Below are positions 30,537-40,240 of a stretch of DNA of 64,000 nt, in pieces. Each line of letters begins with the position of its first letter. Position 1 is the first letter of the stretch. The DNA is from Escherichia phage A73, in sequence record OP778609; one strand, written 5' to 3'. Under the pieces are notes generated by a model, which saw only the letters and a program-made list of their open reading frames with translations, made no database searches and was not told the origin of the DNA. The position numbers were made by a program, and so were the translations under genes.

Positions 30537-30883
30537 TTTACCTCCATCATAAATACTTTAACTTTTCGTACCTCTAATCTTACTTTATTAGAGCCTTGAA
30601 GTCTATTTCTTTTTTCAATTGCGTCATTAATGTCGCCATAGAAGTAGTGATCCTTACCTATTGTTGGTATTCCATTGCCGCCTTGCATAGCCAGTGTATA
30701 CATTTCTTTTCCACCTTGCAACCCTTTTGATACTTTTTCTTCAAAATATTTATTGAATTGGGTTGGTGAAGTGTCAATTTCTACATCATCTTCCCATCCC
30801 ATAACTTTATCCCAAAAACGGTCAATCTTGTCAAGAACTTTGTTACTAATCTTTTTAATCTTCTTCAACATAATCTTCCCCAT
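30533..30883 (-). CDS. hypothetical protein
   Basis: 116-aa ORF. Confidence 0.45.
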   Translation of the reverse strand: MGKIMLKKIKKISNKVLDKIDRFWDKVMGWEDDVEIDTSPTQFNKYFEEKVSKGLQGGKEMYTLAMQGGNGIPTIGKDHYFYGDINDAIEKRNRLQGSNKVRLEVRKVKVFMMEVK

Positions 30884-31343
30884 TATTTATTTGGATACCG
30901 AAACGATTTTCATTAGTGGAAAAGAAACCATTTTCCATGCGGCGAATCTCTTCTTTCATCACTTCCTGCATCGTTAATTTAAGGATTTCTTTGTTTAATT
31001 TTGGCTTAACTTCACGGAGCTTGTCAAGAAGTTTTTCCATTTCTTCTTTTACTTTTTCTTCCTCATTTTCTACCTCTAATTGGTCCATTGCATCTTTACA
31101 AACACAGCAATGGCCCACAACTCTTAAAATATGATTTTGTATAGGTAATGCTTTTCTTCCACAATACCCACAAACAATAGACCCACCGGAGGACCGGGCA
31201 TCTATCGTCAATGTAGGCTTGGCCCCTTCTGCTTGAGAATGCCAAGTCTTTTTACCCTGGTAATCATACATAAAGAATTCGTAGGATCTTTCATCAACGT
31301 GGTCTTCGAGCATATGTAAAGTTCGTGTATTGAAATGTTTCAT
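30855..31343 (-). CDS. hypothetical zinc-finger protein
   Basis: 162 aa; CGYCGRK ... HCCVCK Cys cluster; Glu/Lys-rich coiled-coil-like C-terminus; first gene of the leftward block. Confidence 0.5.
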   Translation of the reverse strand: MKHFNTRTLHMLEDHVDERSYEFFMYDYQGKKTWHSQAEGAKPTLTIDARSSGGSIVCGYCGRKALPIQNHILRVVGHCCVCKDAMDQLEVENEEEKVKEEMEKLLDKLREVKPKLNKEILKLTMQEVMKEEIRRMENGFFSTNENRFGIQINNGEDYVEED

Positions 31344-31380
31344 TTTTAACTCCTCGTCGTTTGTATGTGCTAACTATACG

Positions 31381-31394
31381 AGAACTTGAGGGGA
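31381..31394. promoter_or_regulatory. GAGAACTTGAGGGG motif in divergent promoter region
   Basis: Same motif as the direct repeats at 40066-40240; lies between divergent gene starts at 31343 and 31464. Confidence 0.4.
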
Positions 31395-31404
31395 AGATCA
31401 ATAC

Positions 31405-31432
31405 TTGATTTGCATTTTATTTTCATTATACT
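31405..31432 (+). promoter_or_regulatory. sigma70-like promoter for the rightward block
   Basis: TTGATT-N16-TATACT upstream of the gene at 31464. Confidence 0.5.
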
Positions 31433-31463
31433 GTGCACATCTAAAACGAGAAGGAGATGACAA

Positions 31464-32027
31464 ATGAGTCAAGATAAAGAGTTAGCCATTGCGATATCCG
31501 TAGCTGCTTCTGCCCATGTTGACCAAGTAGATAAAGGGGGGAATATCTATATTCTTCATCCTTTGCAGGTGATGCAAACATTGCAGCAAAAGGGAAGGGA
31601 AGATTTAATGGCAGCAGGAGTTTTGCATGATGTGATTGAAGATACTGAAATCACTATGGAACACCTCTTTAAAAAGGGGATTTCAGAAAGAACCTTAGTG
31701 ATTGTCGATGCAGTGACAAAGAAACGTAAGCAATCTTCATCTGATTACCTAGAGGGGATTTTAGAGAGTGAGGGTGCTTGTCATGTTAAGCTTGCGGATC
31801 TTAAACACAACTTAGATATTCTGCGAACTTGTAGCACCACAGAAAAAGACTTGCAACGGGTCAGGAAGTATGTAACAATGCACTTGTTGATTACGGAGAT
31901 GGTTGATTGGTATGAAAGTATCGGAAGGTATCTCGATTATTGTGATTCTTTTGCCTATTCTAGCTATCTCGACGAACGTAAAGAATTTGTTCAGAAACTT
32001 ATTAAAAAATGGAAGGAGTTTAAATGA
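31464..32027 (+). CDS. small alarmone hydrolase (RelA/SpoT-type HD-domain (p)ppGpp hydrolase-like)
   Basis: 187 aa; HD-domain signature NIYILHPLQV ... AAGVLHDVIEDT ... IVDAVTKK ... HVKLADLKHN. Confidence 0.75.
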   Translation: MSQDKELAIAISVAASAHVDQVDKGGNIYILHPLQVMQTLQQKGREDLMAAGVLHDVIEDTEITMEHLFKKGISERTLVIVDAVTKKRKQSSSDYLEGILESEGACHVKLADLKHNLDILRTCSTTEKDLQRVRKYVTMHLLITEMVDWYESIGRYLDYCDSFAYSSYLDERKEFVQKLIKKWKEFK

Positions 32028-32557
32028 AAAAGGTATTGAGTATTGAGCCGTTCACAACAACATACTTTGACGATTTGGAACGTCATGGTGATTATGGGGT
32101 ACAAGACGCTGATGGTTGGAAAGAATTCCCTGAAGAAACAAAAGGTGACATTACAAAGCTCGGTTGTAAGATCAATGGATCTGAACCAAAAGGTGTTTAC
32201 ACCATGTTTTCTTTCCTTGAAGCTATGAACCCAACGTACAAGGGAGATCGGCAATTTGGTTTTTCTTTTGCATCATTCCTTACTTGTAGCTGTGGTCATG
32301 GGGGTTGTGCAGGCTATCATGATAATGTGGTTATTCGACGTAAAAAGAATACCGTGATGGTCATGGGTAAAAAGGAAGATGGTTATGACGAAGGTGTTGT
32401 ATTGACAGGTGAATCTGTTGTATACTTCGATAAAAAGCAGTGGGACGGTGTTCTAGAACACTACCTTAAACTCTTCAAAGAAAATCCTGATGGTGTTTTT
32501 GAAGATGCGGGTTTTATGTTTACTGGTCGTTGGGGGACTAAAAATTTTTCAAAATAA
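32024..32557 (+). CDS. hypothetical protein
   Basis: 177 aa; Cys/His cluster CSCGHGGCAGYHD; ATGA overlap with the upstream gene. Confidence 0.5.
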   Translation: MKKVLSIEPFTTTYFDDLERHGDYGVQDADGWKEFPEETKGDITKLGCKINGSEPKGVYTMFSFLEAMNPTYKGDRQFGFSFASFLTCSCGHGGCAGYHDNVVIRRKKNTVMVMGKKEDGYDEGVVLTGESVVYFDKKQWDGVLEHYLKLFKENPDGVFEDAGFMFTGRWGTKNFSK

Positions 32558-32627: not shown

Positions 32628-33857
32628 ATGCAAGCAACTTATCAACGTATGGACCAAACCATGTTCAAAAAACGTATCAGTATCCGTGATATGGAACCAC
32701 TGATCCGTCTGGGCGCTTCCATCGGTAAGACCGTGTTCTTTTTTGGTGGTGCAGGTCTTGGTAAGTCTGAAAAAGTAAAACAGATCGCGGACTCTATGTT
32801 CCCACATCGTGTAGGAAATAACCTGTGTGATGTTCGTCTGTCCGATAAAGAGCCGCAAGATATTGCAGGTATTCCGATTCCGATCTCTTATCCAGATCCA
32901 AAGACTGGTGAAGAAGTTACCCGTACTGTATATGCTGTTCCAAACTTCTGGCCTACCGATCCTGATTGGGAAGGTATCGTGTTCCTGGATGAACTGCCGA
33001 ACGCACCATTGGGTACTCAGCACTCTGCATATCAGGTTATTCTTGATCACGTTGCAGGTGAACATAAGTTCCCGAAAGGTACTGTGTTTGTAGGTGCAGG
33101 TAACCGTGATACTGATGGCGCTGGGACAACATCTATGCCTGGTCCACTGGTTAACCGTATGATCATTGCAGAGGTCGATTATAATCTGGATGTGTGGATC
33201 GAAGATTATGCGATTCCGTTCCGTCTGCATCCGAACATTATTGGTTTCTTGAAGCAGTTTCCAGAGCATTTCTATACTGGTGACGTAGAAAACCGAAGCA
33301 CTCCGGTTTATTCATCTCCTCGCCAATGGAAAACCGCGTCTGACATTCTGTATAAGTACGATGCTGGCGAGATTAATGAATTTATCGCAGAGGTTGCCCT
33401 GGCAGGTACAGTTGGTGAAGGCTTGGAAGTGCAGATCCTTGCTTACCATTTACGTGCTAAAGAACTTCCTCCGATTGAAGATATCTTTAGTGGTGCAGTT
33501 AAAGAGCATAAACTTGATCGCAGCAAGAACGACCTTGTTTACGTACTGGCACAAACTGGTCTGCGTCGTATGGAAGATGAAGTTATGGATAACGATATGA
33601 CTGATGATAAGTTCCTTGAACGTGCAGGTAACTTCCTTACGTTCATGTACAATAACTATTATGCAAACAACAAGGATACGATGATTGCTTTGATCTTGGG
33701 CGTGTTCCGTGGTCCAAACGATAAGCCATCTATCCTGACTGTTAACCCGAAACGTCAGAAAATGATTCCGCTCATGCGTAAAAGTTGCCCGACTGTTTCT
33801 GCCGCAGTTATGGAATACATGACTCGCTATGGTCAACTGATTAAAGAATTCGAATAA
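32628..33857 (+). CDS. MoxR/CbbQ-like AAA+ ATPase (AAA_5 type)
   Basis: 409 aa; Walker A GGAGLGKSE, Walker B VFLDELPNAP; strong E. coli-like optimal codon usage (CGT, CTG, CCG, GGT). Confidence 0.75.
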   Translation: MQATYQRMDQTMFKKRISIRDMEPLIRLGASIGKTVFFFGGAGLGKSEKVKQIADSMFPHRVGNNLCDVRLSDKEPQDIAGIPIPISYPDPKTGEEVTRTVYAVPNFWPTDPDWEGIVFLDELPNAPLGTQHSAYQVILDHVAGEHKFPKGTVFVGAGNRDTDGAGTTSMPGPLVNRMIIAEVDYNLDVWIEDYAIPFRLHPNIIGFLKQFPEHFYTGDVENRSTPVYSSPRQWKTASDILYKYDAGEINEFIAEVALAGTVGEGLEVQILAYHLRAKELPPIEDIFSGAVKEHKLDRSKNDLVYVLAQTGLRRMEDEVMDNDMTDDKFLERAGNFLTFMYNNYYANNKDTMIALILGVFRGPNDKPSILTVNPKRQKMIPLMRKSCPTVSAAVMEYMTRYGQLIKEFE

Positions 33858-33937
33858 TCTCTTGACAACGAAAAACAGTTAACTTAATATAAGGGCATCT
33901 CGAAAGAGGTGTCCTTTTTTAATTTGGAGAAAATGAA

Positions 33938-35476
33938 ATGGCAAAACTTACGATTGAAGAAAGCAATATGATTGAAATGCAAGTCTCTGAAGCAGAGCGT
34001 ATCATCGAGGCTGCTAGTCTACAACTGATGCGGTTTAAGCCCTTCTACGGGGTAATGCTTTCGTCTATGCCTGTTAAAAAGGCGACGGAGTGGTGTAGTA
34101 CAATGGCGACTGATGGACGTAACCTGTATTACCATCCAGAGTTCGTTGCAGGTATGACAGAAGAACGTAAAAAATTGGTACTTGATCGACTTTCCAAAAC
34201 TGAGAAAGATCCTAAAAAGCTGAAAGAGTCCACTGAGTTTATTAATGTCTTCTATCGTCGCAAGACTGCCCGTGAGCTTGCTCTTATTCTTGAGCACGAA
34301 TGCGATCATGTGATCTCTGATCATGCCTCTCGCGGTAAAGGATTTAATCATGAACTTTACAACATTGCAGCGGATCATCGTATCAATACAACGGCGGTTC
34401 TTATTCACCAAAAGGGGGATGAGTTAGGTAAGGCATGGTTCCCTGCCGGAGAAAGAACAGTATTCGATAAGAATGCAGAATTTGGATTTATGGCCTGGTC
34501 TTACTGTGATTTCCGATTCAAAGATATGTATACTGAGCAGATCTATGAAATCCTGAATAAAGAGCAAGATGATAAAGAAAAATCCAAAGGGAAAGGTTCT
34601 GGTTCTGGAAGTGAAGAGGGTGATGGTGAAGAAGGTGGTCAAGGTCGTAAAGGTGTTGATCAGCACATGGATCAGAATGGTGATCCAGAAGATTCAGAAG
34701 GTGATGGTATCGAAGATGCACTAGGAATCGACCGTAAAGCGAAGCCTAAGCAAACAGCAGAGGAACGCCAGTATAACGATGGGGTTATGCGTCGAGCCAT
34801 TGAGAATGCCGTACAGGCAGCAGGAAGCGGTGCACCGGAAGATGCTCGTCGTTTTGTAGAAGCGGCGGGTAAACCAAAGATTAATTATCTTCGTTTGTTG
34901 CGTAAAACTATTGAACGTCTGTTCAAAGATGATGTATCATATCGTCGTTTGTCACGCCGTAGTCACTCGTTAACTCGGACTCTTCGTGGCTCGGGTTACT
35001 TATCTGGACGACAGACGATTGGTTTACCCTCAAAGAATAAACAGAAGACTATTCGTGCAGGTGTCTTCTTCGACGTATCGGGATCATTTAACGATGATCT
35101 ATTGCGTCCAACAATGCGTGAGATTCGTGGATTATGTAATCTTTACGACGAATTTGAGGTCACGATGGCTTGCTGGTCAACAAAGGTTGGTAACATCGAG
35201 ACGTATACGAAAAGAAACGTTGGTGAGATTGCTGACTATAAGATCAAAACGACATTTGGTACGGATGTTTCTTGTGTGTTTGAAGCATTAGATGAAATGA
35301 AAGACCCTATGGATCAGATCATCATCTATACTGACGGTTACTTTGCTGATGTATCCCAAAAGAAAGATTGGGCCAAAAAGTATGGTAAGAATGTTCTTTG
35401 GATCATCCTGGGTCGTGGGTCTTCGTTCACCCCACCTTTCGGTAAGGCAATTGATTTTGACAAGTATCTTAAATAA
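33938..35476 (+). CDS. vWA-domain protein with N-terminal HExxH putative metallopeptidase domain
   Basis: 512 aa; HECDH motif; acidic/Gly-rich linker; C-terminal vWA with MIDAS-like DVSGSF. Confidence 0.7.
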   Translation: MAKLTIEESNMIEMQVSEAERIIEAASLQLMRFKPFYGVMLSSMPVKKATEWCSTMATDGRNLYYHPEFVAGMTEERKKLVLDRLSKTEKDPKKLKESTEFINVFYRRKTARELALILEHECDHVISDHASRGKGFNHELYNIAADHRINTTAVLIHQKGDELGKAWFPAGERTVFDKNAEFGFMAWSYCDFRFKDMYTEQIYEILNKEQDDKEKSKGKGSGSGSEEGDGEEGGQGRKGVDQHMDQNGDPEDSEGDGIEDALGIDRKAKPKQTAEERQYNDGVMRRAIENAVQAAGSGAPEDARRFVEAAGKPKINYLRLLRKTIERLFKDDVSYRRLSRRSHSLTRTLRGSGYLSGRQTIGLPSKNKQKTIRAGVFFDVSGSFNDDLLRPTMREIRGLCNLYDEFEVTMACWSTKVGNIETYTKRNVGEIADYKIKTTFGTDVSCVFEALDEMKDPMDQIIIYTDGYFADVSQKKDWAKKYGKNVLWIILGRGSSFTPPFGKAIDFDKYLK

Positions 35477-39771: not shown

Positions 39772-39800
39772 TATTTGTTTGCTAAAACAAATTCAGATTT

Positions 39801-39890
39801 CAGATTCAAAATCTATTTGAGATATTTCCCTGTGATATTTGTTTCATGGGGAATTTTCAGATTTCAATTTGAAATTCTATTTGAGATAAA
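39801..39890. repeat. two copies of a roughly 33-bp AT-rich element containing palindromes
   Basis: TTCAGATTTCAGATTCAAAATCTATTTGAGATA and TTCAGATTTCAATTTGAAATTCTATTTGAGATA; the second contains the perfect palindrome ATTTCAATTTGAAAT. Confidence 0.6.
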
Positions 39891-40065: not shown

Positions 40066-40240
40066 TTGAGAACTTGAGGGGTTTTTCATTTTTTAGATCG
40101 TAACCTGAAAGTTGTGAACGAGAACTTGAGAGGTTTTTCGATAGAGAAATTAGGAACTTGAGAGGTTTTTCATTTTTAAGTTTGCATTTGAAATTGAGAA
40201 CTTGAGCTACAGGCCAGATACTTGAGGGGTTTTTCAAATT
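40066..40240 (+). repeat. iteron-like direct repeats (four to five copies of AACTTGAGRGGTTTTTC)
   Basis: Copies near 40068, 40120, 40153 and 40221, partial copy near 40196; one further copy near 31381. Confidence 0.65.

Follow-up and report, generated by a model that had tools for sequence, protein, structure and literature searches.

Escherichia phage A73 (sequence record OP778609) was analysed over a stretch of 64,000 nucleotides (nt), hereafter the window, in which a first-pass annotation made from the letters alone had pointed to a small alarmone hydrolase (SAH) at the head of a rightward operon. The open reading frame (ORF) in question, taken from the ORF list and its translation, occupies positions 31464-32027 of the plus strand, runs from an ATG start to a TGA stop and encodes 187 amino acids (aa), which include the three motifs quoted in that annotation, ILHPLQV, AAGVLHDVIEDT and KLADLKHN. 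The gene heads the rightward set and is separated by a divergent intergenic region of 120 base pairs (31344-31463) from the first leftward gene, at 30855-31343 on the minus strand. The features of the locus are collected in Table 1.

The gene, its product and its expression

The resemblance of the protein to HD hydrolases is far beyond chance. It matches the Pfam family HD_4 (E-value 8.6e-8, 32.5 bits against a curated cut-off of 27.2 bits) and PHROG 990, 'metal-dependent phosphohydrolase' (E 1.4e-52), and TIGR00691 (spoT_relA) aligns to it over model positions 1-85 of 687 only, which is the hydrolase end of that model. No synthetase family, RelA_SpoT (PF04607) included, was matched by the protein in the Pfam profile search. 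The AlphaFold2 (AF2) model, computed from an alignment of 57 sequences, consists of one all-helical domain with a predicted local distance difference test score (pLDDT) of 91.6. Judged by its sequence, the product of 31464-32027 is a stand-alone HD hydrolase of the RelA/SpoT superfamily, devoid of a synthetase or regulatory domain. The earlier description of a 187-aa RelA/SpoT-type HD hydrolase without a synthetase domain is thus borne out by HD_4, phrog_990, the N-terminal match to spoT_relA and the structure 7SMG discussed below.

For the active site we relied on a residue alignment of the SAH with 70 database homologues, gp220 of phage PVP-SE1, Aph1 and RelSeq. All catalytic residues of the SAH are intact (H32, H55-D56, E59-D60, K109, D112 and N116); H32, H55, E59, D60, K109, D112 and N116 are invariant in 70 of the 70 homologues and D56 in 69 of them. 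In RelSeq, the counterparts of H32, H55-D56, E59-D60, D112 and N116 are H53, H77-D78, E81-D82, D144 and N148. The profile search and active-site check that the first-pass annotation had called for thus confirm the family and find the catalytic set complete. A loss of metal-binding His or Asp, the outcome it had held against its own proposal, was not seen, since all these residues are present in the alignment. The SAH is probably a catalytically competent, metal-dependent enzyme.

The gene had been described, correctly, as the first one after a divergent promoter, and this position is kept in relatives: in the A73 clade as well as in L006, a metagenomic phage whose SAH is 50% identical, and in L010, where the identity is 41%, the SAH opens the rightward series of genes at the divergent junction, and in both L006 and L010 the pair of MoxR and DUF2201 genes is conserved downstream of it. 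In L006, the rightward -35 element is unchanged and the -10 element reads TATTCT, with the leftward elements TTGACT and TAAATT in the same places. A sigma-70-like site is present in each of the three intergenic gaps on the plus strand as far as the DUF2201 gene, for which a rough Poisson estimate gives P ~0.016. Host-type promoters of this kind suggest an early transcription of the SAH. Among the top-ranked literature matches for Vequintavirinae transcript data, nothing bore obviously on the timing of expression.

The divergent intergenic region is, in addition, quasi-symmetric. It holds two imperfect inverted repeats of 19-20 nt that are 74-75% complementary and turn the 5' leaders into mirror images of one another, each ending in AAACGA..GGAG before the start codon.

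Table 1. Features of the SAH locus in the A73 window
Feature	Position	Strand	Basis
Candidate sigma-70-like promoter of the leftward unit, TTGATC-17-TATAGT, placed back to back with that of the rightward unit	31373-31401	-	sequence match
Candidate sigma-70-like promoter of the rightward unit, TTGATT-16-TATACT	31405-31432	+	9/12 matches
Shine-Dalgarno sequence AAGGAG, 7 nt before the ATG	31451-31456	+	conserved in 4/4 aligned phages
Coding sequence of the 187-aa SAH (Aph1/PbcSpo-like HD hydrolase), stop codon included	31464-32027	+	ORF, profiles, AF2, Foldseek
Codon of D23 (Aph1 D24), base-specificity determinant; Arg in Rel/SpoT (p)ppGpp hydrolases	31530-31532	+	alignment
Codons of the N-terminal metal/catalytic residues H32 (31557-59), H55-D56 (31626-31) and E59-D60 (31638-43)	31557-31643	+	alignment
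Codon of G98, at the Aph1 R96 position; sole signature residue lost	31755-31757	+	alignment
Codons of K109, D112 (fourth metal ligand) and N116 in KLADLKHN	31788-31811	+	invariant; D112/N116 = RelSeq D144/N148
Codons of D118 and R121 (Aph1 D116 and R119), base-specificity determinants	31815-31826	+	alignment
Codons of K135-Y136 (Aph1 K133-Y134)	31866-31871	+	Lys in 61/70 homologues, Tyr in 70/70
C-terminal extension, residues 144-187, absent from Aph1	31893-32024	+	AF2 model, alignment
177-aa gene (phrog_8242), ATG overlapping the SAH stop (ATGA), translationally coupled	32024-32557	+	ORFs, PHROG
MoxR-type ATPase gene (phrog_1297; annotated MoxR ATPase in UPEC06)	32628-33857	+	39% identical to PVP-SE1 gp225
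Terminator-like hairpin after the MoxR gene	33891-33916		terminator-like site
DUF2201 gene (putative metallopeptidase plus VWA-like domain)	33938-35476	+	Pfam

Resemblance to Aph1 and to a tested phage enzyme

The closest match of the SAH in the PDB, by sequence as well as by structure, is 7SMG, the '(p)ppApp hydrolase' Aph1 of Bacteroides caccae. The sequence match covers residues 8-143 (E 6e-22), whereas the hydrolases of Rel, SpoT and MESH1 reach E 5e-12 or weaker and the two best Rel matches cover the N-terminal half only. A Foldseek search with the AF2 model likewise returned 7SMG at the top (target template modelling (TM) score 0.91, root-mean-square deviation 1.3-1.7 Å, 33-34% identity), with MESH1 next at a target TM of ~0.66. 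Aph1 cleaves (p)ppApp and has no detectable (p)ppGpp activity, and homology to its C-terminal segment is the criterion that delimits the Aph family from the ppGpp hydrolases (Ahmad et al. 2023, PMC10083569). This non-HD segment (Y90-E143, 54 aa) finds the SAH by BLASTP with E 1e-8 and 44% identity over 39 aa. All 12 Aph homologues tested in the same study cleave ppApp, ten of them with no activity on ppGpp and two with a modest one (PMC10083569).

Six residues, D24, R96, D116, R119, K133 and Y134 of Aph1, have been reported to distinguish the Aph family (PMC10083569). The SAH keeps five of these, namely D23, D118, R121, K135 and Y136, which correspond to Aph1 D24, D116, R119, K133 and Y134. 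The position of D23 is Asp in the SAH, PVP-SE1 gp220, Aph1 and 65 of the 70 homologues, and is R44 in RelSeq. At the position of D118, Asp is found in 52 of 70 homologues and R150 in RelSeq, and at that of R121, Arg is found in 66 of 70; here RelSeq has K153 in the HMMER alignment or T151 in the MAFFT alignment, and Arg in neither. A D24R/R119A double mutant of Aph1 acquires ppGpp hydrolysis (PMC10083569). Since the SAH carries D23 and R121, the very pair whose mutation lets Aph1 cut ppGpp, we infer that its preference would be for (p)ppApp, and probably 3'-pyrophosphorylated tRNA, as likelier substrates than ppGpp. The added C-terminal helix and the Gly at the R96 position appear to be the sole differences from Aph1. 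If the call holds, an adenosine-specific assignment made from sequence would correct the labels 'GTP pyrophosphokinase', 'ppGpp pyrophosphohydrolase' and 'hypothetical protein' carried by homologues.

As to the C-terminal helix, the SAH is ~45 residues longer than Aph1, and AF2 predicts for this part a prolonged helix 8 (residues 127-157) and a ninth helix (162-186), with pLDDT values of 69-95. The extension is missing in Aph1, in PVP-SE1 gp220 and in most homologues (130-150 aa); it is present in the SAHs of L006 (P0002), L010 and CR3-, CR8- and phiTE-like phages, and the A73 SAH aligns to residues 181-185 in CR3, CR8 and phiTE. The compact eight-helix protomer of Aph1 permits a tetramer, with which a C-terminal ninth helix, as found in dimeric SAHs, would clash (Ahmad et al. 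2023, PMC10083569). Given the extra predicted helix, the quaternary structure of the SAH may thus differ from the Aph1 tetramer. The eight-helix compactness is a property of the founding member Aph1 and not a criterion of the Aph family. A basic, RNA-binding character of the extension was considered and dropped, its net charge being ~-1 (8 K/R versus 9 D/E).

A second line of comparison leads to the Salmonella phages PVP-SE1 and SSU5, whose stand-alone SAHs, assigned to the subfamilies PbcSpo and PaSpo, respectively, were the two phage SAHs tested by Jimmy et al. 2020 (PMC7229694). Both neutralised five of five toxic small alarmone synthetases (toxSAS) in E. coli, namely CapRel, PhRel, PhRel2, FaRel2 and FaRel (PMC7229694). 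The SAH is 47% identical over 154 aa (E 1e-44) to gp220 (YP_004894027) of PVP-SE1, a member of the Vequintavirinae, and gp220 in turn has Aph1 as its best PDB match (E 7e-27). No accession for the PVP-SE1 SAH appears in the main text of Jimmy et al.; as the only SAH-like locus in that genome, gp220 is presumably the protein that was tested. Both proteins have identical states at all six signature positions, including the Gly at R96, and gp220, too, closely follows a divergent promoter region and precedes the MoxR ATPase gene gp225 by a few genes. It differs from the SAH in its length of 169 aa, without the last helix, and in being the second gene, after thymidylate kinase, rather than the first; moreover, the DUF2201 partner gene of PVP-SE1 is found on the other side of the junction, so that the MoxR and DUF2201 genes stand on opposite sides. 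The placement of the SAH in PbcSpo is by proxy, through its 47% identity to gp220 and the assignment of the PVP-SE1 SAH to PbcSpo by Jimmy et al. With its origin in the same phage subfamily and its similar gene neighbours, the A73 protein would be a divergent relative of an SAH already tested by co-expression.

Other published systems resemble the SAH in part. Aph1 itself has the same HD/ED catalytic set and is phage-borne too, being encoded in a prophage (PMC10083569), yet it confers immunity, its gene following that of the cognate MuF-fused (p)ppApp synthetase toxin, and it belongs to a temperate element, whereas A73 is of a lytic myovirus group. ATfaRel of Cellulomonas marina, a PbcSpo-type type IV antitoxin of FaRel, is by description likewise a stand-alone SAH that neutralises all tested toxSAS through hydrolysis of their products, tRNA 3'-pyrophosphate among them; unlike the SAH, it is part of a bacterial three-gene toxin-antitoxin operon and is promiscuous, as it also lowers ppGpp. 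The PaSpo enzyme of phage SSU5, again likened by description, is also stand-alone, neutralises toxSAS and reverses the modification of tRNA by FaRel2, but belongs to a different subfamily in the Atkinson/Hauryliuk classification. The hydrolase domains of Rel, SpoT and MESH1 share the HD fold as well as the metal and catalytic residues, but have Arg at the positions of D23 and D118 and an insertion of ~10 residues before the KLAD helix. These enzymes act on (p)ppGpp, MESH1 also on NADPH, and the long RelA/SpoT homologues (RSH) add synthetase and regulatory domains.

The region is 95-97% identical to that of the Escherichia phages A5-4, A7_1, LTH01, W70 and UPEC06, which are myoviruses of 137-145 kb in the Vequintavirinae, and the SAH protein is 95-100% conserved among five phage isolates. 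In the records of these close relatives the gene is labelled 'hypothetical protein' or, wrongly, 'GTP pyrophosphokinase'. SAHs are common in phages, as homologues are spread over 292 phage records, among them those of phages of Klebsiella, Cronobacter and Pectobacterium, of T4-like phages of Aeromonas and of temperate phages of Streptococcus. One match, H47, was rejected as a PaSpo-type comparison, as it is the truncated SAH of an Avunavirus. Escherichia phage 19-1-2 (Avunavirus, Vequintavirinae) has only a 103-aa N-terminal SAH fragment annotated (L009:1402-1713), which reflects either a decayed gene or a sequencing frameshift.

A proposed role in counter-defence and its alternatives

With these comparisons in mind, we propose that the SAH, as an enzyme of the Aph1/PbcSpo type, would strip the 3'-pyrophosphate from adenosine-based substrates, that is from toxic (p)ppApp and probably from the 3'-pyrophosphorylated CCA end of tRNA, with little or no activity on (p)ppGpp. 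Made from the first position of an operon with a host-type promoter, it would undo the products by which toxic synthetases of bacteria or prophages (toxSAS such as FaRel or CapRel, and MuF/Apk toxins) bring an infection to an abortive end. Four of the five toxins neutralised by the phage SAHs pyrophosphorylate the tRNA CCA end, and SAHs can remove this modification. toxSAS such as CapRel are established anti-phage defences, and Jimmy et al. proposed in 2020 that phages escape alarmone-based defence with such hydrolases (PMC7229694). Furthermore, the Pfam search, which covered ORFs above ~93-120 aa other than the annotated tail-fibre genes, found neither a RelA_SpoT synthetase nor a MuF domain in 66 ORFs of the window and 54 ORFs from the rest of the 97%-identical phage A5-4. 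Hence, self-immunity is unlikely and counter-defence is the best reading. We regard this explanation in full, with (p)ppApp hydrolysis, the first place in the operon and a role against toxSAS, as rather probable.

A number of points weigh against it. With an identity of 47% to the tested phage enzyme, the SAH may differ from it in specificity. Some ppGpp activity was seen in two of the 12 Aph homologues assayed (PMC10083569), and the PbcSpo-type antitoxin ATfaRel, described as promiscuous, reduced ppGpp in vivo (PMC7229694). The extra C-terminal helix departs from Aph1, as does the Gly shared by the SAH and gp220 at the position of R96, which is Arg in 41 of the 70 homologues; in Aph1 this residue is 'highly conserved' and distant from the active site (PMC10083569). 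As Arg at this position is frequent, not universal, we did not take G98 as excluding membership in the Aph family. The rightward promoter matches at only 9 of 12 positions, and the whole region is not enriched for promoter matches (15 found versus 13.3 expected). The neutralisation assays relied on plasmid co-expression (PMC7229694), which in the literature searched is also the only way in which the escape-route idea has been put to the test, never in infection, and no paper was found there that shows a phage SAH protecting a phage during infection. Finally, close relatives of A73 were isolated on E. coli K-12 MG1655, a strain not known to carry toxSAS, so that growth does not require the SAH on every host. 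The growth of these relatives on K-12 also makes the gene, a clean and probably active representative, a practical choice for testing the idea with an E. coli phage.

The observations on ppGpp could be read as pointing to an enzyme that acts mainly on (p)ppGpp, lowering ppGpp so as to shut down the stringent response of the host and maintain a productive cell. Both the effect of ATfaRel in vivo (PMC7229694) and the modest cleavage by two of 12 homologues (PMC10083569) speak for this, together with the membership in the RelA/SpoT superfamily and the catalytic residues shared with Rel and SpoT; a stringent response can also hold phages in check, and at least one of them counters it by other means. 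That database records name homologues 'guanosine-3',5'-bis(diphosphate) 3'-pyrophosphohydrolase' adds to the case only as far as automatic annotations do, which are not tests. The guanine-contacting Arg of the Rel enzymes is, however, Asp (D23) in the SAH, R121 is present where loss of the equivalent Aph1 residue was needed to make room for guanine, and the C-terminal half is like that of Aph1 and unlike those of Rel, SpoT or MESH1; Aph1 itself has no detectable ppGpp activity and ten of the 12 homologues have none. We thus consider this reading unlikely, and of the two roles that the first-pass annotation had offered, the countering of alarmone toxins is favoured by the Aph1 signature and the relative gp220, whereas a blunting of the stringent response through ppGpp has become the less likely one. 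A broader or different phosphohydrolase, acting on NADPH, on pAp/PAPS-like compounds or on a defence signalling nucleotide, would serve the management of nucleotide pools or the degradation of a signal. The next-best structural matches after Aph1 are human MESH1 with NADPH and with PAPS, MESH1 is a reported NADPH phosphatase, bacterial 'orphan' SAHs can be metabolically promiscuous (PMC9765508), and the phage lineage is rich in genes of nucleotide metabolism (NT5C, ribonucleotide reductases and thymidylate synthase). Aph1 is nevertheless much closer to the SAH than MESH1 (target TM 0.91 versus 0.66, E 6e-22 versus 5e-7), it retains five of the six residues of the Aph signature, and toxSAS toxins were neutralised by the SAH of PVP-SE1 (PMC7229694), all of which renders this possibility improbable.

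The remaining two alternatives concern the gene rather than its substrate. The SAH might act as a type IV antitoxin against a (p)ppApp-synthesising toxin of the phage's own, in the way that Aph1 gives immunity to the MuF-fused toxin Apk2, with the coupled 177-aa gene as candidate partner. Such an arrangement would recall Aph1 and ATfaRel, which are both found in operons with a cognate RSH toxin; the stop of the SAH overlaps the start of this conserved gene (ATGA), which also occurs near long-form SAHs in several phage genera. None of the 120 ORFs scanned in the window and the rest of A5-4 holds a RelA_SpoT or MuF domain, though, and the 177-aa protein matches nothing in Pfam, the PDB or PADLOC. 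Its gene does not accompany the SAH in L006, is without a homologue in PVP-SE1 and is separated from the SAH by three genes in L010; most Aph homologues are, besides, not next to a toxin (Ahmad et al. 2023, PMC10083569). An antitoxin function is thus very improbable. That the gene is in decay, or its product an inactive leftover devoid of enzymatic function, is scarcely credible: the truncated 103-aa version in Avunavirus 19-1-2 shows that the SAH gene can be lost, but the A73 protein has its full catalytic set, its sequence is 95-100% conserved over the five isolates, and a strong ribosome-binding site goes along with a confidently predicted, complete fold.

Within the preferred counter-defence explanation, we also put forward a more specific and tentative idea, which we consider possible rather than probable. 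The long-form phage Aph enzymes (the A73 SAH, those of the CR3/CR8/phiTE-like phages, L006 and L010) would primarily be tRNA 3'-end repair enzymes, and not scavengers of alarmones, that take off the pyrophosphate attached to A76 by toxSAS defences of the CapRel type. The extra helix would give them, in place of the Aph1 tetramer, another assembly suited to tRNA, and they would act early, together with a CCA-adding enzyme and an RlaP-type nucleotidyltransferase, as a counter-defence that decides host range on toxSAS strains. The part of phage A5-4 outside the 64-kb window (L008) encodes a CCA-adding enzyme (L008:11729-12979), an RNA-repair nucleotidyltransferase of the RlaP family and five tRNAs, a gene set that is weakly consistent with a tRNA-centred role of the SAH; no tRNA genes were found in the window itself. 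Other products of this part of A5-4 are a protein with a NADAR domain (E 6e-37), an NT5C nucleotidase and a Clp protease.

The enzyme family, its occurrence in phages and toxin neutralisation by a phage SAH of the same subfamily are already published (2020, with structure and specificity in 2023), and the SAH of A73 opens no new category. What it leaves to be settled is minor: neither the extra helix nor the Gly in place of R96 turned up in the papers searched, nor did any proof at the level of infection.

Neighbouring genes and repeats

The 177-aa protein found two homologues in a large protein search, and AF2 on this thin alignment reached a pLDDT of 35; the protein holds a conserved LTCSCGxxGCAGY motif. 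Its gene lies near long-form SAHs in CR3, CR8, P7_Pc, SSBI34 and L010 and occurs also in the ~165-kb coliphages JSE and Phi1. It often, but not always, accompanies a long-form SAH. As a cryptic partner or toxin the gene is unsupported, there being no family match and no obligatory synteny. A PADLOC scan of the five genes around the junction gave insignificant matches only.

Further downstream, the MoxR and DUF2201 genes of A5-4 and A7_1 are set apart by an inserted gene for an HNH homing endonuclease (L002:6470-6964 in A5-4). This insertion falls into what is the gap 33858-33937 of A73 and is absent from A73, W70, LTH01 and UPEC06. The label 'HNH endonuclease' that PHROGs gives to the DUF2201 family looks like a mislabel.

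The leftward block (1-31343) encodes a family-A DNA polymerase and DnaB-like and PIF1-like helicase domains, which places the SAH at the boundary of the replication module; three ORFs of this block match the phage FRD2 family (best E 3e-20). In the right half of the window, three ORFs match the RCC1-like repeat and WD40_RLD families (best E 2e-25). These matches were tentatively assigned to three adjacent large ORFs of 380, 414 and 399 aa at 58228-61726 on the minus strand, which would form an unusual beta-propeller block.

Direct repeats were noticed in the gene-poor segment 39772-40600. A 20-nt element, GAGAACTTGAGRGGTTTTTC, occurs there in four direct copies at 40068-40235, spaced by 52, 32 and 64 nt, a number of matches that was reached in none of 100 shuffles. 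Its core, GAGAACTTGAGGGG, is found once in the divergent promoter region of the SAH (31379-31392) and is conserved in the distant phage L006. These elements may be iterons, a replication origin or binding sites of a phage regulator. The same segment holds two direct repeats of 33 nt at 39792-39888 (TTCAGATTTCA...CTATTTGAGATA), which are 88% alike and 64 nt apart, with a weaker third copy at 40233.

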